Notes under the pieces: model-generated
What the model was told of the DNA's origin: nothing
Databases searched by the model: none
What the model saw: only the letters and a program-made list of their open reading frames with translations
Shown: positions 1 to 21,443 of the stretch, piece by piece
Position numbering within the stretch: position 1 is the stretch's first letter
How the letters are laid out: each line of letters begins with the position of its first letter
Source of the DNA: Psammoneis japonica
Lineage: Eukaryota
Length of the DNA: 41,050 bases
NCBI GenBank assembly: GCA_008632985.1
Contig: QPGO01000118.1
Coordinates: 224,227 to 265,276, forward strand
Direction of reading: 5' to 3'
Translations under genes and position numbers: made by a program

Positions 1-2279
1 TTTTTTGATTTCTGACCGTGCTTGTGCCTCAGGTGTCGAAGCTGCTGATTGCTGACTGTTTTAGGCACAGTGCGACAGGCAAGATTGACAGTGCAATCAT
101 GATCAAAAGTCTCCATGATGGACAGTCGAGCACAATCCTCGCCACATGTCAACCCAGTTGTGCAGATCCGACTGGTCAGTTTGGACAGTGTTCTTTTACC
201 ATCACGCCTGAAATCTCTGTTGTCAGAATGCAGATTGTCTCTTGCTGTGTTTGTGTCTTCAAACCATGCCTGAATGTGACCGTGTGCCGAGAGTCTACCT
301 TGTTCTTCCATTGCAGCTGTGAAAGCGGAGGGTCTCCCTGTGTAGAATTCAAAATCTTTTCTGGGTGAATTCCTTTTTAAGTCCCATCCTGTCACTTCTT
401 CTGTGACGATTTCCAATGACATTTCGAATGCAAAAGCCGTGACACCCGGGCACTCCACACGAAGCTCGTTTCTTGCCTCAGCCTTTTCGGTCAATTCTTC
501 ATCCGACATTTCTGTCACATCTCTGCCTTTGTCGATGAGCATGTCCGTGTGAATTTGAACTAAAAAGGAATTGGCATCATCGGGGCTTGTCGTTAAAAAT
601 GCTCCAGGTTGTCCAAAGTGGTGTTGGCAGGTTTCAGCATTTCTTCTCATTTTTTTTGCTGCTTCATTTGCATGTGGAATAGATGCCGACACCACATCCA
701 CTGCACTTAAGAAACGATGTCCCAATGCGCAATTCCTGCGTTCACCGGTCTGTCTGTCACATGTGGCACGGTCGACGTCGTCTTGTGTCAGTTCATTTGA
801 GAATTGTCTGGCTTGATTTTTGTCTCTTACTTTCCATCCAGCACTGTGCACCATTCGTTGCTTCACAGTCAGATTGCACAGGGTCAGAACAAAGAGTTGC
901 TTGTGGAAATGGGGCTGAGAAATGTGGGCCAAGTGATCTGCACAATGTGCTAGATTTGCACAGTCGGCGAGACTCCCGTCTTCTTTCATTCTTGTTTCAT
1001 CAACACCGCCACGCCCATGAGGAAATTGCAGCAAGCAAGCACATGCCAGGTTGTCATCCTCAAAGTCACTGACTGATTCTTTCAAAAGATCAGCTTTGAA
1101 TTCAATGTCAAAACTGCTTGCAGCTGCATCGTGCACCAAGTCTTTGAAGCTGTCTAAATTACGTTGTCCACCAGTTGTTGAAGAAACGGCACCATCGGGG
1201 AAACAAACACTGCAGGACTCCGTGGTTTCAATGTTTGCATTTTCGCTTTCGTCTAAACTGCCATTGTCCACTAAAACTGGATTCTGTAAATTACTTCGCA
1301 CTTCCTCTAGATCGATGTCTTGATTCATCCAATTCTCGTGGTGATGGACAAGCCATTCTAGTGCTCTCATTACACAGTGAGTCCTGATTTTGTTCTTTTG
1401 TCTGGCCACTCGCCTTTGCTCTGGTGTCATTTTGCCGGATGCCAACACAACCACATTTTGATGAAGGTTCAACACGTCAAAGTGCATGGTGGTGCGGGCG
1501 ATGCTCTTTGTGTTTATCTTGCAATGGGAAAGACCACCTTGCAGTTTCTTCTGTTTGCCGCCGACAAAACTGAAGCAGCAGCCATGTGTTTTCACAGGTG
1601 TCAACAAAGCCAGTTCTGCTTCGGTAAGACACGATAATTCAGGTGGTGGTGTTCCAAAACAGCAGTTGTTTGCCATTGCGTGTGGAGGCATAGAAGCAGT
1701 GCAGAGACTTCTTTCACAAGGCCTGCAACAAGTGAATCCTTCAGACCTTCTGTTGTCATTCGGAACAACATGTCGAGCTCTTGGCAAAAGCAACAGGTCG
1801 GAAATCCATCGGCAATCCCGTGGAATGTGGTTGTCATCGATGCGATGACAATCGTGTGGGTCTTCCGACACTTGGTTCCATTCAGATGGAGTTGACAGGT
1901 GTCTGGCTTCTTTCAATTTGTTGATAGAAAGTCGAGCAGTCTGAGACGGTTTTAACAATCTGTCACACACCAAACAAACCCAAGGGACGCACTCGTTTCC
2001 ATTCCTGCAACAAAGCTTCTCAAAACGTCTGTTCACATTGTCTCGGTGCCTGGTGTTGCTGTCATCCACAAGACAGCTTGTAACGGCAGGCTCACACTGC
2101 GCAAAGATGAGTTGAACCAACAACGCAGCAACAGGTGCACACCAGACAACACGACGACCCATGAGACTTGCAATGAGAACAATCTGAGTAAAGTCAATGT
2201 GATCAATAGATGGCAGATGATCCGACCTGCAACTGGTGTTCCCAGTCACTGCAGGGTCCACTTCCAGTGTTTTCTGGAC
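1..2279 (-). mobile_element. Helitron RepHel ORF (DUF6570-like N-terminal region plus Rep/HUH motifs), hypermutated, runs off the left edge
   Basis: Manual translation of the minus frame (codons starting at 2279, 2276 ... 5) is open to the window edge. It is absent from the ORF track because there is no stop. Motifs: CRPCERSLCTASMPPHAMANNCCFGTPPPELSCLTEAEL, RALEWLVHHH, LLQFPHGRGG, FGQPGAFLTTSPDD (Rep motif 1), EEQGRLSAHGHIQAW (HUH motif 2). Upstream in-frame TGAs at 2282 and 2318 may be CGA->TGA. Confidence 0.85.
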
Positions 2280-3146
2280 TCAGCAGACGAGTGTGTGCAA
2301 CAAATCTTCAGCACATCAAGAGCACAATGAACAACAATGAGTGCGATGTGACAAATCTGCAACCGGTGTTTCCCGGTCTCTGCAGACTCTGCGACCAGTG
2401 CATTCTGGTCCCCGCAGATGTTGTCTCAGCTGCAACTGGTGATGCTTTGTGTCGAGATGGCTGGAGAGTCTTCCTTTGCAAAAGTTCAGATCTCATGAAA
2501 AATGAGGGTTGAAGCAAACTTCCGTGCATGATTGACGGACCCGACACATTGTAGATCACTCGTCTCGATTTACTTGACACATCATCGTTCGCTCGTGCGT
2601 TCTACATTGGGATGTGCTGCTGACAGCAGCGGCATCACACCGGTGAGGTTGTGAACGTCAGCGGGAACGACATCTTGTGGAAGTTCAATGTGCGATGATG
2701 CATCTCGCAGTTGAAGTCGGTTCTGCCCACTACGACCACACGACGTTTGTGCGACTGTGACGCCTCATGTCTCGATCTACTGCCAAGTGTAACAGATGTG
2801 TGTTGTTGCAGTGTATCCTCATGATCGGCACGTTCCTTTCATCCCACTTGTGAGTCATGTCGTCTCGCAATGCATGCACTGACATTGAACCATTCGAGTG
2901 AAAAGATTCCAAATTTTAGAAAGATTTCCAGCCACACCTTTCTTTCGTACAATTTTACGTAGCCTGTCATGCTGGTCCTTCTTTCCTGCGTCTCGCAGTG
3001 GAAATTGCACGCAACATGAGTGACGCACCCACACGACCGTCACTGCACGACCGCTGCTGTGTTGGCTCTTCGTGGGAGCTCAGTGACTGGTGACCTTGTT
3101 TTTGGCTCACAATTTTGTGCCAATCAACAACGCAAGACTTTGTAAG

Positions 3147-3340
3147 ATGGCCCGTAAAACGCGAGGTTCTACCAAGAAGTTGGGCGCTTCTCCAACCAAG
3201 AAACAGCAGTCTCCCGTCAAGTTTTCTGCTTCCCTCATGAAAAAAATTGCCCCTGCCAAGACCGTTGGTCTCAATGATGAAGACATGAAGGCCGAAGATT
3301 TGTTGGCCAAGACGGGCATCAAGGTTGAAGTCGGCGCTAC
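3147..3340 (+). pseudogene. Lys-rich ORF fragment (MARKTRGSTKK...), apparently truncated at about 3340
   Basis: ATG at 3147 with protein-like sequence up to about 3340, after which the frame reads the antisense of another ORF. No family recognised. Confidence 0.3.
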
Positions 3341-3488
3341 CTCCGCGGTCTACCTCCGTGGTCGCAGTTGTGATCGTTGCGTCACGCGGCGGTGCAAGAG
3401 ACGCTGGCGTTGCGGCAACGGTGCCTTCGATTTCCTTTGCAAGAGACGTGTCCTTTTCATGAGACGACGTTGCATCCGATTCCTCCAT
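3340..3488 (-). pseudogene. Possible 5' fragment of a host gene (MEESDATSSHEK...), divergent from the DUF1275 gene
   Basis: ATG at 3488 below a promoter-like region with normal TA content; low-complexity N-terminus ending at the 13-bp duplication at 3337-3362. Confidence 0.3.
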
Positions 3489-3991
3489 AGTGGTGTATAA
3501 CACAAAACACGGAGGTTGTCGACAACGACCAGCGGTGCACTCCATGAAAGTGACTGATGCTACGCCGCTCGCTAATGGCGAGAACCGCGAAACAAAACGG
3601 AAGGCGTCCGTCGATTGGGTGCAATAGCCCTACGGTAGTATGTACTGTATGTGTTATGTAGGATGCATACCAGACACATGTTCTTGCTGACGTCGTACAG
3701 TATGTTTCAACGAATTCTACTGTACAAATCCTACTTATTATGTAACCGTGGCTGGATGTGAGGAACTGCTGGATAGCCATTGTATGCCTTGAGATAAACA
3801 TACTAACATACCAGAAACAATCACGTACTTTGGACCATTCCATGTCGGAACTCTAAATAACGATGATGTTTCGGGTGAAGTGCATCACTTTTTTCGTTGC
3901 GTTGGATGGCCGGCCATCACTTTTTGTGGATGTTCGTTGCTTTCGCTCTCTCTGCGGTTCGTGCCGTCGCATTGACAGGTTAACATCCATC

Positions 3992-5209
3992 ATGTCACCA
4001 CCTCTCTATAATGACGACAAGAAGGAATGCTTCTCATCAGAGGATATAGAACAAGGCAACGAGAGCCAAAAGAGTTCCTCAAGCATAACGCATGATAATT
4101 CGTCCGAGTCGAGCCATCATACCAACAAGGAATCATCCTCGTCGACCAACACCAACAACGACAAGGTCGTCTGTCCTTTTAATGACCAATACTCTCATCA
4201 CGAGTATATTTTTGTTGTTTGTGCTGGATTAGCTTTATCGTTCAATTCCGGTTACATCAATGGCGCGTGTCTGTCGGGACTTTTAGTCGACACTCGTCAG
4301 TCGGTTTCGGCCTTTACGGGTGCCTACACGGTATCGGCTTTGGCCTTGGCGGATAGCAATGTCGATTTGTTTGGATTTCAATTCAGCATGATTCTAAGCT
4401 TTATGGCCGGTGCCACCCTTGCTGGCATCTTGACACCCAAGGCACAAGCGTGGCGTATTGCACCAACCTATGGACCAACCTTTTTGGTGGGTGGTTGCTT
4501 TCTCTTGATTGCCACGCTGCTCGCCATGTTGGACAGTGACGATTCAAAACGACTCTTTTATTTTGCGGCAGCCGCAAATGGAGTTCAGAATGGAATTTCG
4601 AGCATGTATTCGTCCAATCTCATTCGTACCAGTCACTTGACGGGAACGTCCACCGACATTGGCTTGCTCGTTGGACAGTGTCTTCGTGGAAATTGTAAAC
4701 AGCTTTGGAAGCTGCGCTTGTTGGTAGGATTGGCGACATTTTTTTGGTTGGGCGGAATCGTGTCCTTGTATGCAACTCGAAGATTCACAAGACAATCTCT
4801 CTTGTTTAATACAATCTTGTTCTTTTCGATTGGACTTGCGTTGGTGGTGTTTTTGAGCAAGGAATTGGGCATTAGCATGTGGCAAGCCACGTGGGGCTCG
4901 TGGAGTTGGCAAGAAGCCCTGCACAAGCTGAGTTTGTACACGGCCGATGGACGACCCGTATCGGCTGAATCCATGATGGATGTGTTTGACAAGATTGATG
5001 CCGATGGTAGCGGTACGATTGAAGAGGACGAGTTGTACAGCGCGTTGAAGGAGGCGGGATTGACACGATTGAGTCACAAGCGAGTCAAGGCTATGATGAG
5101 TGTGGCAGATGAGAATTCAGATGGACTGTTGTCTCGAGAGGAATGGAAGGAACTTGTCATGGGAACAGTGTCTGACAAAAGTGCCAATCAAGGACAAGCA
5201 GCACAGTAG
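3992..5209 (+). CDS. DUF1275/YoaK-like multi-pass membrane protein with a C-terminal EF-hand pair (copy 1, intact)
   Basis: Intronless 405-aa ORF. The ATG at 3992 was chosen by alignment with copy 2. Motifs GYINGACL, AAANGVQN, RTSHLTGTSTDIG, about 6 hydrophobic helices, EF-loops DADGSGTIEEDE and DENSDGLLSREE. Confidence 0.88.
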   Translation: MSPPLYNDDKKECFSSEDIEQGNESQKSSSSITHDNSSESSHHTNKESSSSTNTNNDKVVCPFNDQYSHHEYIFVVCAGLALSFNSGYINGACLSGLLVDTRQSVSAFTGAYTVSALALADSNVDLFGFQFSMILSFMAGATLAGILTPKAQAWRIAPTYGPTFLVGGCFLLIATLLAMLDSDDSKRLFYFAAAANGVQNGISSMYSSNLIRTSHLTGTSTDIGLLVGQCLRGNCKQLWKLRLLVGLATFFWLGGIVSLYATRRFTRQSLLFNTILFFSIGLALVVFLSKELGISMWQATWGSWSWQEALHKLSLYTADGRPVSAESMMDVFDKIDADGSGTIEEDELYSALKEAGLTRLSHKRVKAMMSVADENSDGLLSREEWKELVMGTVSDKSANQGQAAQ

Positions 5210-5519: not shown

Positions 5520-8500
5520 GAGCTCAAATCCTGTGAACCGGGGACTGCACTCCAGCTGGAGAGCTGCTGCAACATTCAGAGAAAAGCCTGTCCTCATGGC
5601 TGACCCCACCCAAACTGACCAAGGGCCATGACAAAAGATGCAATCCAACCAAAATCCAATTGCAAGCTGAAGAGAGCAAAGCACCAAGTTGGAAAGGCAT
5701 GATGAAGAGATCAAGGCACCAAGTCAGAGTGCCCTGTGTGCACTGAGGGGGGGGGAGCAAGCAGCAGCTCAGGTTGGTGTTCAGAGCCTCCCAGGATGCA
5801 CCACTTCCCAGTGAAGGTCCAAATGGAGTGAGCAGCGTGCAAAGTTGCTGGGTGCTGCCCAGCACCCATGGCCAACCCCCACATGCACTGGTGGCAGCAA
5901 AAGAGCAATGCTGCTCCCCAAACACACGTGCACATGCCATCAGCAAAATTGCACCATTGGCCGACCACACTCTGTGCACAGCAAAAATGATGTGCATTTT
6001 GGCAAAATCTCTGATGATTTTTGGCCATGTCAAACTCATCTTTTGACACACTTGCTCAGCACACAAGTCAACAAAACAAACACTGTGAGGACTTCCTCAT
6101 CTCTCACAGGTTGTGCAGTTTTTTGTGGCATGCTGCACACAGCATCCAAGCCACATGCCTGAACAATGGCTTGTGCCAAGCAGCTGCAAGTGAGAGACAG
6201 TTGGCTTGGGTGGGAAGGTGGGGGCATTTTCCTCAAAAAAACATCATGGCCTTTTTTTCTTCTTGACACACATGCCATGGAGTTTTGTGATGCCAGCCAT
6301 GGCCATGCAGGGTGTGTGCAAGTTTTCAATGAGAGGAGCAGGGCCCTTTGATCATGATTTTGGATGAGGAAACCTTGACCTGTGTGCTTCTTTCCCTCCC
6401 ATGGCATTGCAAGGGTCCACATGTTGCCTTCACTGTGTTGCTGTTGTTGTTCAAGAAGACATTGCATGACAACTCATTTGTTTGGTCATTTTGAGAATTA
6501 GATGGAACAAACACTGCCGGATGTGAGGGCATTTGAGCAAATTCAGCCTCAGTCACTGGAAGCTGGTGCAGTGCAACAGAAAACAAGTTGACATGGCAAT
6601 CAGCAGGAAGTCCAGAATTGTGAGTTGACTGGCCATGTGGCCTGCCATTTGGGTGAGACAGTGACAGGCTTGAGCCACCAAAACTGTTGAACATCTGTCT
6701 CACAACACCATGGCAGGATTTGCTTGGTCCCTCACAAACTGACCCTGGCTGCTGTGATGGGGTCAATTTGACACAAATCCTGCATGCTGCATTGCTGGCC
6801 TGTTCCAGGCAAAAGAAAACCATCCTTAGATTGTTGGGGTTGACAAAACAACTGCTGCCCCTGTTTTTGGGTTTGGAAAATCCTGGCTGCTCTGCTTTGG
6901 CTCAACCCCTGATTCCCACAAAATGTGGTGCATGAACTCCCTGAGCTTTGATCTGGGCAAAAGTTTGGTGAGAATGACACCCACCAGATTTGTGCACCCA
7001 TCATCCCATGAAAGCTGCATGACTCCAGCAGCTTGTGCCTCACGAGCCTTGTGACAGATGATCACATCATGCACCCTCTTCAGCACAGCTGTCATGTTGG
7101 ATTCTTAAAGACAGAAAACAATGGAGGGCCCCTCAATTGGGGCACCCAGCATGCAAAACTTGTGACACAAAGTTTCTGCAGGCTCTGCTGCAATTTTCAT
7201 TGCAACAAATTCTGACCCAGGTGTCAAGGACTCAATGGCATTCTGCTGTTTTGAGTGCCACAAAAACAATGACCCCAAAATTAAACCTTCTCATCAAGTG
7301 ACAACTGGCATGACCCACACTGACAACACATGCTGTGGTGACACTCTTTTCCTGTGCCCAGGAAAAATCATGCGAGACAGCTTTGGCTGCCCCAGGTCTC
7401 TGTTCTGACCAACCACGCCTTTGTCCATCTCAAATGTGCCTTCATTCAAACAAGCAAATGTGCAAAGCACAGCATCAACATGGCTCCTGACTCATGGAGC
7501 CACACCACATGGGGTGACAGAATTGAAGTTGGTGTGACATCACAGTCTTGATGCAGAGCCAAGCTTGATCATCCATTGCAGGACTGTGTTGTGGCCAATC
7601 CAGTGAAGGCCCCAGGCAGTGAAAAATGTGGCAGCAGCCACAGCAGAGCAGCAGCATGCAACCTCTTCAGAGGTGTGACAGTTGTGCTCAGAAAGGTGCA
7701 AAATTGTCATTTGCATGTGAAAAAGCAAAGTGTGCACTGAGTGAGCAATCACACTTTGTGAAGTTGGCATTTCCATCAACACACACACAATGCAATGGCA
7801 AAAAAGTGCATGTTCAACCCTTGTCAATTGATGCACTGCATGTCCCACCACATGCATGAATGTGTGTGCACCACAAGTCATCTTCAATGACTTGCTCTCC
7901 ATCATTGTGCCACTGTCTGGCCAAATGAGTGGTGTTTGTCTGCACTCATTGCCAAATGTTTTGTCCAGCAGGAGCTGCAGTGACACAAGCAAGTGATGGC
8001 CAACAGTGCTTGTCATGAAAATCAATCAAATGGCACAGTCAGTCATCACATCCCAGCCATTGCCATTCAAGGCACAATGCAGAGTGGAGAACAAGTTGGC
8101 ACAGCACAGCCAACAGGAAATCTGGAACTGCAGATTCATTGGCTGCATGTGGCCTGGCACTTGGTGACAGTGACAGGCTCACTCAAACAACCAAAACTGT
8201 CAAACATCTGTCTGATGGCCCTGCAGCATCATTTGCTTGCATTGGGTTGGCCAAAATTAAAAAAAAAATTGGTCAAAATTTTGTTTGGCTCATGCAACTC
8301 AAGAAAGTTGGCCAAATTTTCTGGTGATTTTTTGATGGACAGAGTGTGTCTCAGTGCTGCAAAAATTCACTTCATTGATTGGGCAAAATCAAGCATCCAA
8401 AAACTCAGATTTGTTAAAAACAAGTGCATGTGCAGCAAACACACAAACACAAAACTGAAACAATCACACACCACCCCAGTTGGGGGTCAACCAATCAGCA

Positions 8501-11457
8501 TCACATGTGCCAAGTGGCTGTTTCATTGCCTGTTAGATTTGTGATCTTCTCTGCCACAAGAAAATCTCAAGCCCTCTTCACTGCATTCTCTGGCAGCATG
8601 AATTGTGCATGAGGCAGTGCTCTTTGGCAATGTGCAAGTCTTGTTCAGGATGACACCCAAGTGTGTGAGGCTTGGCACTGACCTCACCCCTCCAACCAAC
8701 AACTCACACACAGCTGCTGATTGCATCATTGCCAAACCACTTGCCATGAAACAATTGGGGCTGTGCCCTGCCATGGCAAGTCAAGTGTGTTTTCTTTCAA
8801 AGCTGTGCTGTTTTTGGCTGCTTCTTCTCACTGCATGTTTGCTTTTTCTGGCAGCCTTCAGGTGCCAACAGGGCTGCCAAATGTTGGGATTTGCACACTC
8901 ACCACTGCCACCAGCACTTCAAGAAGTGTGGAACAGAGCAAGGTCAAGGGCACTCATTGCTGTCTTCACCTCATCTTTGTGACTTTGCAAAAAGAGCTTG
9001 TTGCGTGTTTTTGGGAGCTGCATGTTTTTCTCACTCTTGCCACAGATGTGCACAATGCACTGCCTGGGTTGAGTTGTGCTGTTTCTGTTGCAATCCAATC
9101 TGTTTGGTGCATGAGCAGCACCAAGACCAGCACAAGCCCTGCTGCAATGGCAAAGGTGCCCCCAGCAGGCCCAGTGCCTCATGCAGCTCTGCAAACACAT
9201 GCTGCACAGTGCAAATGAAGCAGTGTCAACTGCTCTTCTGCCACCTGGTCTGTTCCTTCAGGCAACTGCAACTTCAACCATGGTTTTGTTTGAGAGGAAA
9301 TGGGATCTTTGTTCTTGGACAGGTTGTCATTTGCAGTTTGCAGTTGAGGAGGGTTGCACCCATCATGGGAGGAAGCTGGGCCTTTTGAGGATGGCTCAGC
9401 ATGTGAACATCCTCCACTTTTGGCCACAAAGCAAAACACAAGAAGTGTGCTTGATGCACAAGGGCAATTGCCATTTGCCATTTGCCCTCATTGCACTTGC
9501 CAAGTGTTTCTGCGGGAAGCTTTGGAGGCATTGACAGAGCAGTGCTGCAAAAAACATGGATCCAGCCCTCTGTGGGCAATGTTGGACAATCCCGTCAACC
9601 ATGTGTCAGATGCTTTTGAAGTGTGCAATGGCAACAAGGGTCTCCATCTTTGTTTGCCAGTCAAGCCAGCCAGGTGGGTGTTGACAATGGCATCACATGT
9701 GACTGTCATTGCAACAAGGGGTCCGAAAGAGCACCTCATCTGCCATTTCCTGTTGGCATTTTGCTTGCCACCCTGATGTTGGCCATTCCCATGGCCAGTT
9801 GAATGGCTGAGAAATGTTCAAAGAATGATGCTGGACTCCAAGGACCTTGTGCCAAGCCACCTGGAACCCAAGCAGCAAACATCAAATGGACAGCCCTGCT
9901 CTCATTCATGCAATGGTGCTGGCATCTAAATCAGCACATGTGCCACAACTGACCTCCCCCCCTGGCTGCCAGTGGGGCAGCTCCCATTTCAAGATGACAT
10001 GCACCAGCATTGCCACATTGACTTTGCAGCCAAGCTGGACCAAGAAATTGATGGCAAAAAATGGGTGGTTTGCCAAGACAGATGCAGGCTGGCCATCCAT
10101 GTTGCATCTGCTGCAGCACTGAGAATGGTGCTGTTGGTCAGCACACTGTCTGAAACCCATCTTTCACTGTGAAGGAGCCAAGCACCAGAAAACTGATGCA
10201 TCACAGCACCAACATTCAGATGTGCAAATCTGTCAACAGTGTGTGCTGCACCAGCCACAGTGTGAAATCCAAGACCCAACCCTCCACTGTCTTTTGCAAA
10301 GCTGCTTCACATCTCAAGCATCGTGTCTTTGAGTCTCCCATGTGCTGTGGTGGGGAGAAGTTCATGAGTGGATTCCTGGCTCAGGGCCTTTGCAATGCAG
10401 ACACTGACATTTGTGCAATGACTGTGTGTGATGTGGGGGTGCATCTTTCCTTGAAATTCAATCTCAGTTGTCTCAAAATGACATCAACAAAGTTGATGCT
10501 CAGTGTCTGTGCTGCACCTCTCTGCTTTTTGTTGTTGAAACTCATGTGCTGCTGCTGTTGACCCAACAAGACTTGCCTCGGGAAGTGTTTGATGAAACTT
10601 TTGGTTGCTGCATCATGAAAATGATGCCCACCCTTTTCAAGGTCAAGAAACACAGTTTGCAGATGTTGCAGTCCTTCTGGCAACAAGGCAGCAGTCACTG
10701 CCTGGTCAAAGCAGAGAAACTCTCCAGGAAGTTGTGGAAGTCAAAGGTTTGGATGCAGACTGGTGTGTGTTCCCTCACATTTGGAAATGCAGTTTAGCCA
10801 AGCATTCAAGCACAGGAGCTGAACAGCTCAAAGCCTGGAAAGAAATTTGCAAGCTGCTTGTTGAAAATGTCAGAGTTGGAGCACCAACCTGACTGGAACA
10901 CACTTGGTTGCCATGAAGTCTCTCTTTGGTTTCCTGCCAAGTTGGGTGCCTGAAGTGGCCCTGCTGCTCATCAAGGGCATCAGCCCACCCAATGGACTGA
11001 GCTTGGAAAGCAAAATGAGATTGTCTGCAAAGACTCTGGTGTGCACTGCAGGAGTTCTTTTGCAGGGTGTTGACAGCATGCAAGATGCAGCCATCAAGAG
11101 TTGGAGTTTTGTGACACCTTGTTCAAGGATTTGGACAGAGCAGTTGTGCATTTGCCCAGTCAAGATTCACATGGACAGTGCAAGCAAATCATTGCATTTC
11201 TCTCCTTTGGTCACAAACAGTTGAAGTGGCACAAAGTGCAAGTTCTTGTCTGAACATTGTCCTTTGCAAAAACAGACAGCTGCCATCCCCTGTTGTTTTG
11301 CAGTCACCAGAGTTTCCCAGGAAGCCTTTGTTGCCTGAGGTGCAATTTGCTGTTGGCTGAAAAGTCAATTTGCTGCAAACCCTTGGCTGTGTTGGCTGGA
11401 ATGTCCTCCAGAAAGTTCTTCATGTGAAGCACCTGGAGTCAAGCAGAGTTGGACAAG
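5520..11457. mobile_element. Heavily degenerate repeat/TE block, almost free of TA and CG; right part probably continuous with the MULE at 18600-21443
   Basis: TG/CA-saturated sequence with no intact ORF. Its right end is joined to 18600 by the gypsy TSD. A possible Ulp1-like remnant lies on the minus strand near 9940-10220. Confidence 0.6.
6577..8213 (+). repeat. Diverged dispersed direct repeat, about 125 bp (6577-6700 and 8087-8213)
   Basis: Shared blocks aacaagttg, cagga, catgtggcctg, gacagtgacaggct, accaaaactgt and aacatctgtct occur in the same order. Confidence 0.65.
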
Positions 11458-11461
11458 CTGG

Positions 11462-11893
11462 TGCCCCATGCATGTGCCAGGCGCTGAAAAAGAAGATGTG
11501 TTACGACTTTGTCGTTGTGAAAATTATGAGCTGGTTTAGAGTAGAGAAAATGGGATCGTGTGAACAGGGAATCTTGCCAAATCCCCACTCGTTCGCATTT
11601 GGATCGCATCAAATCGATCGTGCGTTCGCATTGTGGATCGTGCGAATCAAGCCATCACGCGCCATGCACGAGTGATGTCATCGTGTGGAATCACGCCACC
11701 ATCGTGGGCCAGACGACGGGCTAGTGTGCTTCACACGGATGCTCTCTTGGCATCCTTCTGGAATTGCCCAAGACCCAGAGCCACGCCCTCCTGTGGTCGT
11801 GCTTCCCAGGCACGTGTTGACAACACTGCGTTGCCACGCACAAGAGGCTCATGCACGGTCTCGCCGTGTTGTCCAGCAGCGAGGCATGCTGCA
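11462..11893 (-). repeat. Gypsy 3' LTR
   Basis: Ungapped match to 18164-18595 with about 31 mismatches; adjacent PPT. Confidence 0.95.
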
Positions 11894-11922
11894 CACTCCC
11901 CCATGATCAGGGCCGTCAGGTC

Positions 11923-13743
11923 TCACTGGTGACAGGGTGCAATCTGCCGTAGATTGTGCGTGTCCATCAGCGCTCCGTTCTGGACATGCAACGTGCCGTT
12001 GTCACACACACGGACAACTCTGGCGGGTCCTGCATGGCTGTCAGAACTGCACTTAGAGGATTGTTCCTGTTTGATGAGTGCCAATTGCCCTGCGGTGTGT
12101 TGACACTCCTTGCGTTTCTGATTTTCACGCTTGTTGTTCAAGTGGATGAGCTTCTGCTTTCTGGTTTCTGTGCACTTCCACTTGGCACGATGGGCAACAG
12201 ACAAAACCACATCGCGTCCGAAGACCAATTGCATGGGACTTGCACGCGTGGTCGCATGTGCCACAGCTCCAATGGCGAAGGCCACTGTGGAGAGGATGCC
12301 ACTCCATGGGTCATCTTCATCCAGTTCCATGTCCTGTGCTGAAAAGGAACGCACCATGTTGCCAAGTGTCTGGTGCACACGTTCCACCATGGCATTCGCC
12401 TGTGGATTCCGTTTGCTTGTGGGTTTCTTCAAAATCCCGTGGTCATTTTTAATCATCTGGCTAAATTCTGCCACAAATTCTGTCCCACAGTCATAAACCA
12501 CCTGGGTCGGCCACGGACATCTGCATGGCCACGTTTGTTCCACGATGTTTGCTGCAACGTCTGCGCGTTTTGCAGACACTTCTTTGATCTCGAACCACCC
12601 GGTTGCTGGGTCAATCATTGTGACTGCCCACAATTGCAAAGTGTCCTTTCCGCGTCTTTGAATTTTGTGTGGCCCCATCACATCTGTGCACAGAGTCTCC
12701 CATGGAATTGTCTCTGCGACCTTTTCTGGCAGCTTCCCACAACGCTGCGTTCAGCGTTTTGTCTTCTGGCATCGATCGCACTTGGCGCATGTAGAATGCA
12801 CCGTAGACCTCACACCAGGCCAATGGAAGTGCTGGGCAATGGATGTTTCCATGCGTGTCTCACCTGGATGACACAGTGTCTCGTGGCACCATTCAGTTAG
12901 CGGAACCTGCAATGACTGTGGTGCTGCGATTTTGTCCTTATGACAGATCAACTGTCGTGATGACCCTCCCCCACGACATGCGCAAATGGAGCAGTCGGAC
13001 GAGTCCTCAGCTCGTGAGAGCAGGCGCTTGTCCTTTTGTTGTGCTTTTTGAATGCGCTTGAAGCCAACAGGCAGAGACATCTCATCTTGCGCGTCTGCAT
13101 TAAAAGCTTCATGCAAAGGACGACTCGATGGAGTGTCTTTTACATCCAGATTGGCCTCGGAAGGCAAGCTGGGTGCTGGTCGAAGAGAGCGTCAGCGACT
13201 GGGTTATGGGCACCCTTGACACAGCGTGGTTCGGGACCGCATTCTTTGCGTGTCAACCGCCAGCGCATGACGCGCTCGGCATTGAACACTTTGTGCGCAA
13301 GATTTTTATGATCAGCACACACAATCATGCGATGACCAAGGAGAATCGTTCGAAATTCTTTCAACGTCTCCACAATGGCGAGCAATTCTCTCTCCGTTGT
13401 TGCACAATTTAATTGCGCACCATCAAGCTTTCTGCTGTAAAAGGCGATGGGTTCATCATTTTGGGATGCAACTGCTCCCAATTGATGTTTAGAGGCATCG
13501 GCACGCATCTCAAAGGGTTCATTAAAATCAGGATGTGACAATGAAACATCATCCGACATCACCCGTTTGACGGTTTCGAACGCCTCATCTTCAACGGACG
13601 TCCACTCCCACTCAACAGTCTCGCTTGCGAGTCGTGTTGGCGGAGCCAAGACTTCAGAACGTCCAATCCACGTGTCGCAGCAGCAGCTCACCATGCCAAC
13701 AAATGAGCGCAGGTTGCGTTTGTTGGTTGGGGTCGCGATTCGC
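11923..13743 (-). pseudogene. Gypsy RNase H and integrase, frameshifted and hypermutated
   Basis: ADASKHQLGAV, IAFYSRKL, ERELLAIVETLKEFR, ADHKNL; integrase H..LCHPG, CAKCDRCQ, TMIDPATGWFE, NPQANAMVERVHQTL. Confidence 0.92.
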
Positions 13744-13747
13744 TTGA

Positions 13748-15058
13748 GAGGGCGGTCCAGAGATCGCCTGGCACACTTTTTGCATAGAAACCACACGAGA
13801 GCCAAGCACGTACATTCCTGCATGGACGCAGCACAAAAACACAAAGCGGCACTCCATCACGACTCCTCTCGACACACCACCTGACGACAATCCATCAAAA
13901 TGGCATCGTCCGTGTCTTTCTGTAGCTCCTCTTTCACTTGCCCCATTTCTCCAAAAGGGCCAGGGATGGCTCATGCATTTCTGTTGTGATGGAACAATGC
14001 AAACGCAAGTTGTTTTTTCACTCCAAACTCTCAGAATGCAGTGCAACATGTTGTCAAGGCGAACTCAGTGAATGTCCACTCCATGAAAACAACAGAGACA
14101 TGATGCCCCAGAAAAACAAGCTCTGCACTCCCATGACAAGTTACAAAGCCAATTGTTCTTTTGGGCTTGCACTCTTGTGCTGTTTTTGGAGACTTGGCAT
14201 TGTGCATAATTTGCCCCTACTTTAACATCTAAATGTGTTGCACAGGCTTAGCAGATGAGGCAAATGAGTCACATGTTTCTGTGTCACAAACTACCTTGTG
14301 TCTGTAAGACTCAATGCAAGCCATCATGATCGCCATGGCTCGTTTCTCTGTCGAACAAAACTGCGCATCACCTTCTGGAGGCACGTCAAATGCGCGTCAA
14401 AATTGCTCGACGACAAATCTGAGCTGCTGAGAGCTTGAACATCTTCAGACACCACAGACCCAAGCTTCTACATTTACCATGAAGTCATCCGGATGCTGCA
14501 TCTGTGACTTGGACTTGTCGTCAGACTGCCGTGGCCGTTGCAAGGTGGAAGTGACATTCAAAGCAAGCACTTCTCTCTCAGGGATGGCCCATGGCAAGGG
14601 AGACCCTACAGAACAAAACAACAATGAGGAAAGACAACACATGTGTAAGTTGAAAGAATGTGAGCGTACAAGCACTCAACGAAATGCACAGCATGAATGG
14701 TGATGCATGAGTTGCGTGTTGATGCAACAAAATCGGCGGTGTCAACACCAATCTTCAGTTCAAAATTTCACCATGATCTACCCATGTGAACCTGTGCACT
14801 CTCGAGCTTGTCACATACCTCATGCTATGACGTGTGATATTCCGTTGAGAGTACACTACAAAGTACCTCAGAAACAACCGCATTTTTGAAATCGGCGAAA
14901 CGCCATTGTCCGTGTTATTTTGCGTGTTGTTTTGCGTCGCGAGCCAGAAAACACACCCAAAAACTGTTCTACAGGGCGAAATGTACTGAATCTACACAAA
15001 TTTGGGTTGTACCAGGCCACGTAGAAAATGAACGGGCCGAGAACTGTGGTACGCCCAC
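13748..15058. mobile_element. 1.3-kb non-autonomous DNA-transposon-like insertion splitting gypsy pol
   Basis: Removing it restores KVDAI-K-RIATPT. Flanked by TTGA (13744-13747) and TTAA (15059-15062). Imperfect terminal inverted match: gagggcggtccagagatc vs gtgggcgtaccacagttc. Confidence 0.8.
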
Positions 15059-15062
15059 TTAA

Positions 15063-16356
15063 TGGCGTCGACTTTATTAGGCATTGGTCGCATTACGTCT
15101 CTGTTGACCAGATAACCCAAGTGTTCTAATTGGGTTTGACAGAAGTGAGATTTAGTTGCGTTAACTTTTAGTCCTGCTTTCTGGACCCTCAATAAAACTT
15201 CTTCAAGTTTGTTGAGGTGATCTTCACAGGTGCCTTTCGTCACGACGAGAAGGTCATCTAAGTACGTTCGAACGAACGATAGATCTTCAAATAAGCCTGA
15301 CATGCGTTCTTGGAAAATGTCTGGCGAATTACATAATCCCATGGGCAATACCTGCATCTCATACTTGCCCCACGGGAAGATGAGCGTGCAGAGCTTCTTG
15401 CTGTCAGTATCCAATCGGATATGATAATAGCCCATGTTTAAATGCAGCGATGTAGCCCACATAAAGCCTTCGAGCTTAAGTAGCATATCTTGGATATGAG
15501 GAATCGGATAAGGCAATCGCTTGATCCGTTTATTCAGCTCTCTGCAATCATTAATAAAGCGTACCGTTAAATCTTTCTTCGGTATGATAAATGATGGAGC
15601 TGCCCATTGGGATCGGTTAACGCGTTTGAGAACACCGATACGTACTAGGCGTTCTACTTCTTTACGTAGCGTAGCTTCGTACGCACGAGGTACTTTATAC
15701 GGACGAGCGTGGTATGGTTCTACGCCCTCCTTGAGTTGGATATGGTAGGGTTCTCCCTTCCATTCTCCTAATGTCCCATCAAATAAGGACTCATGGCGTT
15801 TCAATAGTGCCAAAAGGTCGTTTTGTTGAACTATAGAAAATCCTATTGCCTATCGCGTTATGTCCTCGAGGCAGGCCGGCGCGTACTTAGCGTCTAAAAT
15901 ACGCAAAATCCGGTCGGTTTCCGAATATAAGGCTTCTGGATCTTGAAGATAGAAGGAGGTTTCCACCGTAGCATCTACGTGCCTCATTGGTACTTCTCCA
16001 TTGACTAATGGCCACTCTATCATCTGTTTAGAGAAGACAATATCAATGCCTTGTGTCTCCAGAATGTCACGTCCAATAATCATATCGTACTTGCCCAACT
16101 TTCCGTTGTGTATGTGGACGGTATGTTTAAGTTCTGCAGTTTCGAATAATTCTGGTAACCAAAATTTAACGGTACAGTCGTTAGACGTACTGAACGAGCC
16201 TGCTACAGTAGTCCAGTTTGTCTCAGCCGTTGAATGGCTTCGCAGACGTTTACAGTATCGACTATCGAGTAAAGCACTGCTGGCGCCACTATCTAGCAGT
16301 GCCTTGATGGTTTGAGTCTTGCCCTTGCCATGTTTAGCATTCATAGCTATGAACAA
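15063..16356 (-). pseudogene. Gypsy aspartic protease and reverse transcriptase (one in-frame TAG at 15850-15852)
   Basis: ALLDSGAS, YDMIIGRD; RT WAAPSFIIPKKD, RELNKRIKR, LPMGL, TYLDDLL. ORFs 15850-16356 and 14992-15813 share a frame. Confidence 0.93.
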
Positions 16357-16950
16357 GATTGGAGTAAGATGAGTCTTTTTAAAACTCGTTTGCGGGATTG
16401 GCCTACAACACGTGTACGATGGTAATTCAGTTGTTCATTCATGCATTCATCCAATGTGTTAAAACTGCCTGCATCGTGTCGGCCCCCTTCTCAGGCGTCC
16501 GAATCTTCGGAATCACTTGACGCATTCGCACAACGAGCTGATGGATGGCAAGACGATTTGACATTCTGAATTTTTTTTGCACTGGAAACTTCGTGCGCGC
16601 TACACGAGCATCGCTAAAAATCGGCGACATGACGGCGGTGCGTTGTCGTGATGACAGCGACGACATCGACGTGTCCTGGAGTCTTTGAGCATTGTGGACA
16701 TTTAGATTGTTAAATTTGCGAACACATGAAGTCATGAAATGGACCAGGAGCAGCCTTCGTTCAATGCAAAACGTCACACCAACACTGACTCTGTTTTTTG
16801 ACTGTCATTTGATGCACTCAATTGTCGAACGATCATGAGCCAGTCCGGGCAGCTTTCTTTGCGCATTGATGTTCTTAAGAGCATTGTTGATGACGCTGTC
16901 AAGTGCACATTTTAAAGTCGTTCTGCAAGACAGTCAGAAAAATGTCATCG

Positions 16951-18102
16951 TCATCGTCGGCGTCGACGGCAATTTGTCGCGCAAATCGCAAAAAAAGCAC
17001 GACAGTTGTCTGTCTGACATTGCGCCACTGTGCGCTGGTTGTGCGAATGCCTCAAGTTGAGGTCGCGGAAGTGATCAAGCTCCTCCTCGCGTGCCTTGCG
17101 CTTTTTCTGAGCGTTGGCAAAGAACTCCTCGACCTTCGATCCGATGAGAGCACTGACATCTTCCTCGTTCCGAGGTTTTGCATTGGGCTTGCTGCCTCCG
17201 TCATTGGAATGTCCAGTCTTGACACGTTTCACGTGGTGCTTGAGCTGACGGCAATCCTCCGTATGATGTCCACAGTTAGTCCCGTGCAGCATGCATGACT
17301 TCTGGGTGTTCCGTTGGGTCGTGATCAACGACTCAGGATTGTCCGTTCTACGTCCCCATTTACGTGGAACCTCAGCATGTTGGTCCTGGTTGCCTTCGGC
17401 AAGCTCGACCTGCTCGATGCGCTTGCAGAACTGCACAAATTCGGCGACAGTGTGCGCCAACGGGTCAAAATTCTGCAGCGTCATGAACTTCTGTCATGCG
17501 TTCGGCACACCGCACTCGAACATGTCGCACAGTTCGTCATCAGGTGATGGTGCCGGTGCTTCTCCGTCCTCCATCACGGGTGGAAACTGAGAGACACAGC
17601 TGTTAATTTCAACAGCCCTCGCGACGCAGTCACGAGTGGAAACCTCTGTGGGCTTGCGCATGAAGCACCTCAGATGACGCTTCTGCAACAGTGCCGCCCC
17701 ATGTGGGAAGACACTTTCCTTTAGCTTCGCGACGCATGCTGCGCACGCAGCGTTGGTTTGGGATGCCTGCTTGTCAGCGGCATCATTGAATGATGTCAGA
17801 GCATCGCCCTGCAGCAGGTCACGCACAAGGGCAAATTTCGCTGGCCCGGTCGTGATGTTTTGTCCTTCGTGCACGCGATCCACATTGCGCAGAAAGATCA
17901 GGAGTGTCTCGCATGTAGCCGCAGAAAGGTGCGGAATGCCCATCTCGTGCGTTGGACTGTCCGGATCAGCGGGGTTGTCACGCAGCTTGAACGTCTGGCA
18001 CTCGCCCTGCTGCAGCTCTTTCTTCTCCGGCCGTGCGAACGGAATCGGCGGCTCAATCCGCTTCTTCATGGTCGTTTTAAGATTTGTCGGTCCTGCCAAC
18101 AT
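16951..18102 (-). pseudogene. Gypsy gag (internal TGA at about 17494; zinc-knuckle-like CMLHGTNCGHHTEDC)
   Basis: Two in-frame ORFs just downstream of the 5' LTR. Confidence 0.8.
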
Positions 18103-18163
18103 TTCGTAGTTTCGTTTCTGTAGATTTCGTCACCTCGCACAACATGCGGGAGTGACATCACTG

Positions 18164-18595
18164 TGCCCCATGCATGCACCAGGCACTGAAAAAGAGGGTG
18201 TGTTGCGACTTTGTCGTTGTGAAAATTATGAGCCAGTTTAGAGCAGAGAAAATGGGATCATGTGAATGGGGAATCTTGCCAAATCCCCATTCGTTCGCAT
18301 TTGGATTGCATCAAATCGATCGTGCGCTCGCATTGTGGATCGCGCGAATCAAGCCATCATGCGCTGTGCACGAGTGATGTCATCGTGTGGAATCACGCCA
18401 CCATCGTGGGCCAGACGACGGGCTGGTGTGCTTCACACGGATGCTCTCTTGGCATCCTTCTGGAATTGCCTGAGACCTAGAGCAACGCCCTCCTGTGGTC
18501 GTGCTTCCCAGGTGCGTGTTAACAACACTGCGTTGCCACGTACAAGAGGCTCATGCACGGTCTCGCTGTGTTGTCCAGTGGCGAGGCATGCTGCA
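18164..18595 (-). repeat. Gypsy 5' LTR
   Basis: Paired with 11462-11893; followed by TSD CTGG. Confidence 0.95.
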
Positions 18596-18599
18596 CTGG

Positions 18600-21443
18600 C
18601 ACCTCAGCTCTTCTGCAGTGTGCCAGCATGTCATTGCAATGCACTTCATTCAAGTTGTGAGCCCAGGTGGAGTGCAAGCACTTCAAGGCAGCTGTCTTGC
18701 ACCATCAGAAAGCAGCCCCAGGCAGTTGATCAGCAGACCCCAACTTTGCTCCCCACTCAGAACAACCACAGACTGTCCCATCTGGGTGTTGGTGCTTCTT
18801 GATCTTCTGGTTCTTTCTGCATGCACTTTGATGGTGCATGCAGAGCATGAAGCTGCCCACACACATTTCAGCATCAGCTTGTCCACTGGCTCCATGCCAA
18901 AGGTTTGATGCCAGGCAAACCCATGCTGCATGCATCCTGTGACTGAAACAAGCCACAAAGTGTGTGCTCAACCTGGGCATCAACAAATTGTGCACACTCT
19001 CAATCTCTGCCAACAACTGGTGCCAGCTCATCATTTTGGGCTCAGAGTGGGAACTGCTGAGCTGTCATTGTTCTCATTGGCATCATCATCCCATGCATCA
19101 ATGTTGCTGATTTGAGCAAAGCCAATGGCACCTCAGTTCATGACCAGCACGGCACATGTGACAGCCCATTGTGCACTTGGTCAGCAGAGCAGTTGTGCAA
19201 AGACAATGCCACATCACACAAAGCATTTCAAACAACTCTTTTCTCATTGTGGCAGAGGCTCTTGAAAATGACACATCAAGGTGAGGCAGTGCTTGTGAGC
19301 AGCATGGTGGTGAATTTTCTGAGGCAGAGCAACTGAGTGATTTGGTGCCAGATGAAAATGTTTCAATGGTCATTTTTCCACCTCAAACCCTTCTTTCTGA
19401 ACAAGCCCTCAGTTCTTAACCTCCACCCCCCTTTTGTGTGTGACAAAATTCTCAATTGGCACAAAATGCATGGATTGCATGCTAAAAATTCTCTCAGATC
19501 ACATGTCTTGAAAAGGAGAATGGTTGAAACAAGCTCCTCACACGCGCAAAAAGAGGGGCAAGTTCTCAGGATTTGTTTGGGTGATGGGGTTTGAGCTGGA
19601 GACATGATGATCATTGAAATGCAGCATCCATCCACCAAAATGTGTGGCGTGGTTCTGCCCCAAAAGGTTGAAAGTGACACTGCCTGTGTGATGATTGCAC
19701 ACCACTGCACAGTGGAAATGTTTGTGCCACGAACCTGCAAGCAGATTGTGGTGCACAAAGCCATCAAACTTGCCACTCAACTCCAATTTCATGACAGACA
19801 TTGTGTGGGCACATCTGATGCCCATTTGCTGATGCTCTGTGCTGTTGCAATGTGGGGTCCAGGAGCCATCAATGCAGACAATGAAGACATGCCCAAACTT
19901 GGGGAGTGCAGTTTGACTGGCATTGGTGTTTTTGCCATCATCATCCTTGCCTGCATTCACTGGGTGGTCATTTGTTGATGAGACACCCTCTTCTTTGTGT
20001 TTGTGGGCCAACCCCAGAAGGCTGTGGGTCTTGAATTGTCTTGTTCTTGGACAGAACATTGAACATCATCACAGCAGATAGATTTGCACCTCTTGTGTTC
20101 AAGATTGGCTTGCACTTGTTGAGGATGTGTGATCTGACATGGGTCATGGTGTTGACCATGTGGGGGCACTTCATGCAATGTGGCTTGACTTGGCAAAATG
20201 CTCTGCTGTCACCTTTGCATTGGGCTGCACTGCAAAATTCGGGGCACACATTTCCAGGCTGTGTGGTGGTGGTGGAGCAGTGGCCAGGTGACTCTCTTTT
20301 TCATTCCAAAGCTGGTGACCTGGTGGCTCAAGCTAGCTCAGCAGCTCCACTTTTTGAGGTGGCAAGCACAGCCCCATTCCTTGTCAAAAACCTCAACATG
20401 AATGAGCTCATGCATCCATGCCAGGGTGAAGATGGCCCACCCACAGATGCCTTGAGGATGTGCAAGAAGTTGATGAGCAGCACCTTGGACGCTGTCTCTG
20501 TGCCTCATTTTTGCTGCTGCTGGGACACATGAGTGATCACAGCCAAGCCTTGGTGGCACCAGGGAGATTGTCAAATGTCTTGGGCACACGGAGAGTCAAA
20601 CACATCTCACCCAAGCAGCATCACAGCCAAGAACCTTTCTTTCTCAACACATGCCACCCACAGCACATCTTGCTTGCACCATGGTTGGCAAAAACCTGGC
20701 TGTGGTGCTGCAAAGCTCATCTCTCTCTTGCAAGTCTCTGTCTTTGAAAGCAGCCATGTGGGCTGATTGAAGGGACCTCAGTGTCCAACAGAGCAGGAGG
20801 GGCCACTTGAGATGCCTGGTTTGGGCCAGAGTGTCCCGTCAGAAAAGTGGGGCAGGAGGCGCCAGGTGTCCTGGCAGAAAACATGAAAAGAGCCCTCTTG
20901 TGGTGGTTGGCACACAATTTTGCATCAACCTTCTTGCTGACTTGAGGCAAAAAGGCAGGGTGCAGTGGTCTCTTCTTCCCACACACCCTCTGAAACACAG
21001 CGCACACAGCCAAAAGGCAACAAAAACAAGTTGTGTCACATCAAGAGCACAGGTTGGGTGCTTTTTGTACCCTTTGGCACAATGCAACAACCACATCACA
21101 GTGCAGCTGCTCCAAGTCTCTTTTGCACCCCTTCCCTTTCTCAATTTGATGACCCTGCCATCAAATGGTGGGTCGTTGGGGGGTGGGGGCAGGAGCAGCG
21201 GTGAAGAAGACTCAAAAGGCGGCCTTCTTTGCCAAAATGCAGCCCCAAGCTGCACCTCCTGCACCCAAATGGCCAATGGCCCCTTTCTCATTTGTTTCAT
21301 TGAGTCTTCTGGGTCAATCTGAGCACGCCTCACCTTTTGAGATGTTTCTTGGTCTCGTCTTGGTGTGGAACACACCAGCTGTAAAAAGGTCGCGCTGGAT
21401 CCGGCTGCAATGGTGACGTGGCGTGACGTGGCGTGACGTGCCC
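18600..21443 (-). mobile_element. Degenerate MULE/Mutator-like transposase region
   Basis: Minus-strand SWIM-like remnant PKFGHVFIV...HCNSTEHQQMGIRCAHTMSV (about 19790-19900) and an ICGW remnant (about 20440). Terminal (gtgacgtggc)n repeat at about 21414-21440, where composition returns to normal. Confidence 0.55.

Follow-up and report, generated by a model that had tools for sequence, protein, structure and literature searches.

Layout of the locus and its three composition states

The DNA analysed here, hereafter the window, is a 41-kb stretch (41,050 nt) comprising a nest of transposons set between host genes. Its older transposon-type DNA has lost most or nearly all of its TA dinucleotides, which have become TG or CA, and part of this DNA has lost CG as well. 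We counted TA and CG in 250-bp bins over the whole window and defined three composition states, S0, S1 and S2, whose borders are sharp and coincide with insertion sites:

3501-5500, 14761-16460, 21501-30000 and 40251-end: S0, normal; ~10-15 TA and 12-17 CG per 250 bp
1-3500, 11462-14760, 16461-18595 and 34790-39246: S1, TA lost and CG normal; mostly 0-4 TA per 250 bp, at most 7
5520-11461, 18596-21250, ~30750-34784 and 39252-40200: S2, TA and CG both nearly gone, according to 250-bp bin composition

The share of TA is 4.38% in S0, 1.03% in S1 and 0.17% in S2. The corresponding values are 5.49%, 5.52% and 0.50% for CG, and 7.52%, 9.52% and 11.66% for CA/TG. The rise in CA plus TG matches the loss of TA in S1, and that of TA plus CG in S2. 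S2 has the composition of S0 with TA and CG moved into TG and CA. By order of nesting, S2 is the oldest DNA and S1 arrived later; this order and the target-site duplications (TSDs) are mutually coherent.

DNA depleted of both TA and CG

The S2 DNA forms two blocks, each in two parts and without an assigned strand:

5520..11461: S2 block 1, left part; single copy; 9 TA and 14 CG, with TG/CA approximately doubled
18596..21250: S2 block 1, right part; 5 TA; covered by a single-copy contig of 3,257 nt
30750..34784: S2 block 2, left part; contains an N gap (31745-32028) and a ~159-bp tandem repeat (34072-34608)
39252..40200: S2 block 2, right part; 2 TA; assigned by composition

In the largest part, the mononucleotide expectation for 5520-11457 is several hundred TAs, and both TA and CG stand at 0.00-0.06 of expectation. 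Over 6001-11000, each kb contains 1-3 TA (observed/expected (o/e) 0.01-0.04) and 0-4 CG, while TG and CA occur at 1.8-2.3 times expectation. An earlier interpretation of this DNA, made from the letters alone and termed here the sequence-only reading, had described the scarcity of TA and was silent on CG; with 14 CGs in 5520-11460, the block is as CG-free as it is TA-free. The two parts of block 1 were once contiguous, as a gypsy element, element B, is inserted between them with a CTGG duplication at both edges.

The left part of block 1 has a read depth of ~62-70, the same as the host genes, in k-mer contigs from public run X1. One contig of 5,668 nt spans it with 3 differences, and the 3,257-nt contig matches the right part with 6. 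Since this single-copy block is mutated, present-day repetition is not required for the change. Duplicated segments within S2 differ mainly by transitions, including sites with TG in one copy and CA in the other, hereafter TG/CA doubles. The internal repeat 6542-6726/8052-8239 has 42 transitions and 11 transversions, with 10 TG/CA doubles; the tandem repeat at 34072-34608, present in 3-4 copies, has 59 transitions and 5 transversions, with 12 TG/CA doubles.

None of the S2-block open reading frames (ORFs) of at least 90 aa, 31 of which lie in 5520-11461, had a Pfam match at E<=0.01. In transition-tolerant Smith-Waterman comparisons, an S2 segment (S2a) scored 41-55 against gypsy element B, the copia elements C and D, a Helitron and a second S2 segment (S2b), where shuffled controls scored 44-52. 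Seeds in a purine/pyrimidine alphabet across S2 revealed internal repeats only. As part of our best explanation of the window, we lean towards regarding the S2 block as old, silenced mobile-element or other foreign DNA.

The sequence at 30001-32030 has a strong purine skew (GC skew 0.27-0.48, AT skew 0.23-0.31). A run of 16 G lies at ~30560-30580, and the N gap of the scaffold at 31745-32028.

TA is lost in place, on both strands

The mobile elements and the annotated host genes of the window are as follows:

1..3500 (-): Helitron-like DNA transposon remnant, S1; a 759-aa open frame at 3-2279(-) contains DUF6570 and Helitron_like_N
3857..5206 (+): host gene, DUF1275 + EF-hand, S0; Pfam
11462..18595 (-): Ty3/gypsy element B, S1; Pfam integrase, Integrase_H2C2, RNase H, RVT_1 and protease
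11462-11893 and 18164-18595 (-): long terminal repeats (LTRs) of element B, 432 bp; 4-bp TSD CTGG at 11458-11461 and 18596-18599
14761..16460 (-): unmutated S0 segment inside element B; RVT_1 at 14995-15849, protease at 15853-16434
21499..22791 (+): paralogue of the DUF1275 + EF-hand host gene, S0; Pfam and paralogue alignment
22867..29446 (+): young Ty1/copia element C, S0; ORFs for gag, protease, integrase, reverse transcriptase (RT) and RNase H; LTRs 98% identical
34790..39246 (+): copia-like element D, S1; RVT_2 at 36967-37770; inserted into the second S2 block
34790-35065 and 38973-39246 (+): LTRs of element D; TSD AATGG at 34785-34789 and 39247-39251

An insertion starts out with two identical LTRs, and differences between them record changes since. 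We classified the mismatched positions of LTR pairs B and D:

LTR pair B: 31 mismatches, 30 of them transitions; 7 TG/CA doubles; 6 sites with TA against TG or CA; 2 TA/TA; 26 CG/CG; 6 sites with CG against TG or CA; 5 other
LTR pair D: 25 mismatches, all 25 transitions; 5 TG/CA doubles; 1 site with TA against TG or CA; 3 TA/TA; 9 CG/CG; 10 sites with CG against TG or CA; 3 other

In the two pairs together, the TA class accounts for 31 of the 56 mismatched positions and the CpG class for 16; 8 are others and one, in pair D, is unclassified. A TG/CA double is explained by one ancestral TA that was altered in each LTR separately, on one strand in the first and on the other strand in the second. 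As elements B and D are not depleted of CG, CG is a less likely ancestor of these doubles. On this basis, each LTR would have carried ~22 (B) or ~14 (D) TAs at insertion, a normal density, and would have lost ~76% of them since. A 244-nt contig from another copy of the element B family differs from the window copy at 13 positions, 10 of which are TA in the contig and TG or CA in the window. The direction of change is therefore from TA to TG or CA.

The change acts on chromosomal DNA in place and on both strands, rather than on RNA prior to insertion: the LTRs grew apart only once integrated, the Helitron is affected, and TG and CA are equally frequent and randomly interleaved. Helitrons are rolling-circle transposons without an RNA intermediate, and the remnant in the window, with 48 TA in 3.5 kb and normal CG, was hit as hard as the retroelements. 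The TG:CA ratio is ~1:1, and runs tests on TG/CA order gave z values of -2.2 to +2.9, mostly near 0, and detected no strand-coordinated mutation tracts.

Within this one window, the change is restricted to transposon-type DNA and its borders are sharp. The DUF1275 + EF-hand paralogues and a JmjC exon all lie in S0. The paralogues differ at 98 of 1,250 sites, 35 of them by transversion, and show no excess of the TA class.

Survival of TA depends on its flanking bases

The sequence-only reading had counted roughly nine TAs in 5520-11457, near 6499, 6827, 7106, 7282, 8258, 8415, 8534, 9927 and 10795, and had placed all of them within TTA or TAA. The count, the positions and the contexts are all exact: TTAG and TTAA occur four times each and CTAA once. 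TTA/TAA contexts account for 37.2% of all TAs in the window's unmutated DNA, and TTAA or TTAG/CTAA contexts for 14.9%, giving probabilities for nine of nine of 1.4e-4 and 3.6e-8, respectively, so that chance can be dismissed. The exceptions reported outside the nine are also real (ATAG at 20079, CTAG at 20334 and GTAC at 21068). The TAs kept in both LTRs of a pair are TTAT and TTAG in pair B and three TTAG in pair D, again as described.

Context-free decay, in which survival is independent of flanking bases, was rejected by likelihood ratio (p=2.5e-12 in S1, 7e-9 in S2). Survival is strongly flank-dependent, as proposed, but the protected class is narrower than TTA/TAA: it is YTAR, that is, TTAA, TTAG/CTAA and, in part, CTAG. 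In S2, TTAT/ATAA has 0 survivors against 69 in the baseline, and TTAC/GTAA has 1 against 58. A comparison of NTAN and NAAN rates had been suggested. We computed NTAN survival in S1 as the per-kb TA count relative to S0, and it bore out the flank dependence:

ATAT: 0 (baseline 35)
ATAC/GTAT: 0.06
GTAC: 0.11
ATAG/CTAT: 0.13
ATAA/TTAT: 0.14
CTAC/GTAG: 0.33
GTAA/TTAC: 0.39
CTAG: 0.41
TTAA: 0.48
CTAA/TTAG: 0.52

YTAR makes up 19 of the 23 TAs in S2 as against 104 of 570 in S0. Its share is 19% in host DNA, 17% in copia element C, which served as an unmutated baseline, and 21% in the gypsy segment that was spared. This share rises to 27, 42 and 45% among the three elements in S1, and to 86 and 78% among the two blocks in S2. 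By chi-square, S0 differs from S1 (p=1.4e-9) and from S2 (p=7.8e-13). The difference also holds within the gypsy element (p=2e-4) and between copia elements C and D (p=7e-4). All three S1 elements, which are independent of one another, and both S2 blocks thus show the flank dependence.

A flank model with four parameters fits the data, with lack-of-fit p=0.52-0.87 in S1. Its coefficients for the base 3′ of the edited A, b(+1), are 1.85 for T, 0.91 for C, 0.33 for G and 0.28 for A; the same model can be written equivalently for the base two positions 5′, with A > G > C ~ T. Product shares lean towards the +1 form over the -2 form but are noisy, and 11 polarised sites are mixed. In the young LTRs of element C, only two TAs have been lost, both at ATAT. 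Overall, RTAY is lost first (ATAT before ATAC/GTAT and GTAC) and YTAR last, over a ~six-fold range of rates. The last remaining TAs are TTAA and TTAG because YTAR is the slowest context.

The 67 CpGs that survive in S2 follow a different rule from that of TA. They are protected by G+C flanks, with GCGC at 0.29 of baseline and TCGA at 0.018. This pattern fits spontaneous deamination better than an enzyme shared with the TA process.

AA to AG is not established as a minor class

The sequence-only reading had further proposed AA to AG as a minor class of the same process, and the three AA/AG mismatches that it quoted do occur, in LTR pair D at 34806, 34915 and 35036. The class itself is not established: the direction of these changes is unpolarised, paralogues are equally biased, and AA/TT is undepleted. 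LTR pairs B and D have 7 transitions outside the TA and CpG classes, of which 6 are AA/AG rather than GA/GG (p ~0.06); relative to the sites available, these are 6 of 158 after a 5′ A and 1 of 144 after a 5′ G. The same bias, ~2:1, is present in the host paralogues, which are untargeted (18/302 with 5′ A, 8/269 with 5′ G). The AA/TT share is 7.03% in S0, 6.55% in S1 and 7.70% in S2. At most, AA to AG is at least ~20-fold slower than the loss of TA.

Rates of loss

From LTR pair B, the loss per copy since insertion is ~1.5 at TA (-ln(1-0.77)), ~0.10 at CpG and ~0.008 at other sites; from pair D, the values are ~1.4, ~0.3 and ~0.007. By this arithmetic, TA is lost ~5-15x faster than CpG and ~100x faster than other sites. 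CpG decay, at 13-40x background in the two pairs, is as expected of methylated CpG. Regeneration of TA through background mutation would account for only ~1/10 of the survivors.

Protein footprint

The loss of TA is also visible in the encoded proteins. Tyrosine drops from 2.9-3.5% of residues in the ORFs of S0 to 0.1-0.6% in those of S1, with 0.1% in the Helitron frame. By contrast, cysteine is at 4-5% in S1 ORFs as against 0.8-2.3% in S0, and histidine is higher in the frames of copia element D and the Helitron. The copia C and D proteins are 27% identical over 106 aa, too far apart for a site-by-site count of Tyr to Cys or His. Because TAA and TAG have been erased, long open frames persist in dead elements, such as the 759-aa frame of the Helitron (3-2279(-)) and a 497-aa frame of element D (34953-36443(+)).

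Further features of the elements and host genes

Element B belongs to a high-copy family, with a summed contig depth of 2,000-32,000 as against ~62 for single-copy DNA. Its RT and RNase H lie ~1.5 kb apart rather than adjacent. One contig from run X1 joins 13680 to 15103, leaving out 1,422 nt of the element, and 13960-14700 is CG-poor with the lowest family depth (2,268). This region has the appearance of an additional segment, older than or foreign to element B. Element C has no matching TSD (ACGAG at 22865-22869, TCTCT at 29447-29451), which may reflect recombination between two copies.

The direct-repeat pair 3982-5235/21618-22870 does not consist of LTRs but of the duplicated DUF1275 + EF-hand host gene. 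The tandem duplicates lie 17.6 kb apart and bracket the transposon island, and their similarity stops exactly at the start of copia element C. The host gene has 100 homologues, with a best identity of 54%, and all the named ones come from diatoms. Named relatives of the window's copia are from Chaetoceros and Epithemia. A feature search placed the window nearest to a cluster made up mostly of Bacillariophyta. On these grounds, the window does not belong to the B. natans genome discussed below.

Comparison with known systems

In a search of the full-text literature for TpA hypermutation, including in diatoms, the only report found was a preprint on the chlorarachniophyte Bigelowiella natans (Mettrop et al.). 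According to the accessible portion of that preprint, 231 of 302 nuclear single-nucleotide mutations in mutation-accumulation lines fell in two hypermutable integrated viral regions; 230 of these 231 were A-to-G or T-to-C, all 230 at TpA, and only some lines were affected (bioRxiv 10.64898/2026.01.13.699255). The same portion describes 124 clusters that are TpA-poor and rich in CpA plus TpG, and proposes an ADAT2 homologue as the enzyme (bioRxiv 10.64898/2026.01.13.699255). As far as these excerpts go, the likeness to the window is close: in both, the changes are limited to TpA, which becomes TpG or CpA; they occur at the level of DNA, affect both strands and are confined to foreign or mobile DNA. 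Likewise, a single-copy region can be hit, the clusters are enriched in reverse-transcriptase and DDE domains, and the activity appears episodic.

The two cases also differ. The host is a probable diatom, a stramenopile, here and a rhizarian in B. natans. Loss of TA is near total here (TA o/e 0.02-0.18), whereas the preprint excerpts give a rho of 0.45 for the region derived from a nucleocytoplasmic large DNA virus (NCLDV). The targets here are LTR retrotransposons, dated by their LTR pairs, and a Helitron; those described in B. natans are integrated viral DNA. Finally, a flank rule and a coupled erasure of CpG are found here, while the terms 'CpG', 'flank', 'LTR' and 'trinucleotide' do not occur in the preprint's main text as accessible. 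The signature in the window is a second case of B. natans-type TpA hypermutation; it comes from another lineage, has reached saturation, and adds both a new fingerprint and a coupled erasure of CpG.

Repeat-induced point mutation (RIP) of fungi resembles the change in the window in being a defence-like, DNA-level, dinucleotide-specific series of transitions that ruins transposons. However, RIP converts C to T mostly at CpA, creating TpA and stop codons, whereas the change in the window eliminates TpA and, with it, stop codons; RIP also needs duplicated sequence, whereas a single-copy block of the window is mutated. RIP was rejected because TpA is destroyed, CpA/TpG is created and a single-copy block is affected.

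The decay of methylated CpG in diatoms, plants and animals resembles the other half of the S2 signature, in that CG becomes TG or CA in silenced elements and the survivors are biased towards G+C-rich flanks. It accounts for the CG half of S2 only, since S1 has lost TA with CG intact. The converse state occurs in copia-bearing metagenome contigs (L010, L012 over 6001-11000, and L013), which are CpG-poor (o/e 0.07-0.4) with normal TA. Erasure of TA and of CpG is thus separable in nature.

Mechanism and alternative explanations

On balance, we consider the window to represent silenced mobile DNA of a probable diatom on which two context-specific transition processes have run nearly to completion, a reading that we hold with moderate confidence. 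The fast process would convert TpA to TpG or CpA, equivalent to A-to-G on either strand, site by site and without strand coordination, and would be limited to transposon or heterochromatic DNA, sparing neighbouring host genes. The slower process would convert CpG to TpG or CpA, the ordinary fate of methylated CpG. Their combination would produce the series from S0, untouched, through S1, with TA gone, to S2, with TA and CG gone. As for chemistry, the fast process may be enzymatic deamination of adenine in DNA to inosine, which is read as G, and its targeting would be by chromatin state and not by repeat homology. In the affected elements, tyrosine codons (TAY) would become Cys or His codons and TAA/TAG stops would vanish, such that the proteins are destroyed and long, empty frames stay.

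A TadA/ADAT2-like deaminase is the candidate enzyme, with a 'U-A-(C/Y)' substrate preference that would match the fast TAY contexts. The 'UA' requirement of these enzymes mirrors U33-A34 of tRNA. The edited A in the window is preceded by T, as such deamination would predict, and in TadA/ADAT2-ADAT3 and the TadA-derived DNA base editors the target A likewise follows U or T. According to available excerpts, native TadA depends on 'UACG' and the sites of TadA-8e show 'UA' (PMC12296453), while structures of the TadA family, in the portion of the source seen, show contacts to the bases at +1 and at -1/-2 (PMC3239186). In the additive model, TAY is lost faster than TAR, although '-2 = R' fits equally and product shares are noisy. 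The natural substrate of TadA/ADAT2-ADAT3 is a tRNA loop, and their natural activity on chromosomal double-stranded DNA and targeting to chromatin are unproven. We propose tentatively, at somewhat less than even probability, that diatoms, or this lineage at a minimum, defend their genomes with a DNA adenine deaminase that is directed by chromatin and has a TadA-like preference for TAY. As the mirror image of RIP, this defence would remove TpA from silenced transposons and, jointly with methyl-CpG decay, bring them to a state free of TA and CG.

The sequence-only reading had suggested that the flank rule might discriminate between enzymes. It does so in part: polymerase eta (Pol-eta) and ADAR fit poorly and a TadA-like 'UA(Y)' preference appears to fit best, an assignment that is unproven. 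The main rival is a thymine-directed chemistry, in which the T of silenced TpA would be modified, for example oxidised to 5-hydroxymethyluracil (5hmU) by an enzyme of the TET/JBP type, and an error in copying or repair would then turn it into C. 5hmU is enriched at TpA in dinoflagellates, and T-to-C at RTA fits every count equally well since TA is palindromic. Against this route, 5hmU pairs mainly with A, and in the accessible text the authors of the B. natans preprint read their precedent as adenine deamination, likewise without proof; we consider the thymine route unlikely, if worth serious attention. Error-prone repair of the Pol-eta type at WA, acting repeatedly in methylated heterochromatin (for example in the repair of deaminated 5-methylcytosine) and writing G opposite T, would explain why TA loss and CpG decay share the same DNA, and could draw on the 6 of 7 residual transitions in LTRs B and D that are AA/AG. 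For Pol-eta, AA is as hot as TA, and transversions at A:T also occur. In the window, however, TA outruns AA at least ~20-fold: AA/TT is undepleted, and AA/AG is seen at 6 of 158 sites where ~76% of TAs have been lost. Transversions make up 1 of the 56 mismatches in the two LTR pairs, the AA/AG excess is equal in untargeted host paralogues, and S1 elements have lost ~76% of TA with little change in CpG. WA is a known A:T hotspot of somatic hypermutation, according to the part of the source available (PMC6423074), but repair of this type is a decidedly improbable cause of the pattern observed here.

Three further explanations are more remote still. ADAR-like editing of transposon transcripts, fixed through reverse transcription so that copies are inserted already edited, would suit the retroelements that make up most targets in the window. 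ADAR favours a 3′ G, with TAG as the preferred triplet, whereas TAG is among the slowest contexts here (b(+1) of 0.33 for G, 1.85 for T and 0.91 for C). Moreover, TG and CA at the same site of one insertion's two LTRs can arise only after integration, both strands are hit equally, and the Helitron and the single-copy block are affected too. The 5′ U/T preference of ADAR does match, as cited in the accessible part of the preprint (bioRxiv 10.64898/2026.01.13.699255), but we regard this route as very improbable. An artefact, in which modified DNA was miscalled by the sequencer or polisher (5-methylcytosine as T, modified A as G) or repeats were collapsed in assembly, might be entertained for a scaffold with an N gap and for an element B family of hundreds of copies, where local chimeras are possible, perhaps at 14761-16460. 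Nevertheless, k-mer contigs at ~62-fold depth reproduce the single-copy S2 DNA over 5,668 and 3,257 nt with 3 and 6 differences, TSDs and nesting are coherent, and neither the flank rule nor the loss of tyrosine resembles random miscalls; we give this explanation almost no weight. It is equally hard to credit that no mutation process is involved and that the DNA, foreign or specialised, has had little TA and CG from the start, owing to selection or to a constraint on composition. The lack of Pfam matches in S2 and of similarity to the other elements, even with transitions tolerated, would agree with such an origin. By contrast, duplicated S2 segments differ mainly by transitions, many of them TG/CA doubles, the S1 elements show the loss in progress with its direction established, and the composition of S2 is that of S0 with TA and CG moved into TG and CA.

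Several observations weigh against the reading that we favour, that of two transition processes acting on silenced mobile DNA of a probable diatom. TA depletion is absent from 13 related copia metagenome loci (86.5 kb), in which no 1-kb bin has a TA o/e <0.41; the TA-erasure trait is therefore lineage-limited and not general. Exposure of S2 relative to S1 is ~2-2.5x when estimated from slow-context TAs and ~8-24x from CpG, and this conflict between the two clocks suggests that the TA process is episodic or self-limiting, or that CpG loss was sped up in S2. The 1.7-kb stretch at 14761-16460 is untouched within mutated element B: it has 2-11 TA per 100 bp, where nearly all bins in the rest of the element have 0-3 (one has 4 and one 5), its RT and protease frames are intact, and its right edge near 16460 is sharp. 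This stretch could be the result of gene conversion from an unmutated copy, of local protection, or of a chimera of assembly or polishing. The flank baseline consists of other sequences of the window and not of true ancestors, and '+1 = Y' does not separate cleanly from '-2 = R' in these sequences. As TA is a palindrome, A-to-G and T-to-C chemistry would look the same at the sequence level. The contigs from run X1 may derive from the assembly's own sample, in which case their support is not fully independent. Finally, the host is probably a diatom, judging from the homologues of two proteins.

Significance

The signature has practical consequences. Gene finders would call long, false ORFs in such DNA, which is nearly without TAA and TAG, and homology searches miss such elements because their proteins lose nearly all tyrosine. 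Dating by LTR divergence is inflated ~ten-fold unless TA and CG sites are masked. The order of loss, with RTAY fast and YTAR slow, provides a testable fingerprint for the 231 de novo events in B. natans and for candidate enzymes. A natural, motif-specific A-to-G change in chromosomal DNA would be a second, independent mutational defence of genomes beside RIP and APOBEC, and such a process would also be a possible natural source of DNA adenine deaminases. If the proposed defence is real, its occurrence in a stramenopile and in the rhizarian B. natans would point to an ancient eukaryotic immune module or to one that has spread horizontally.

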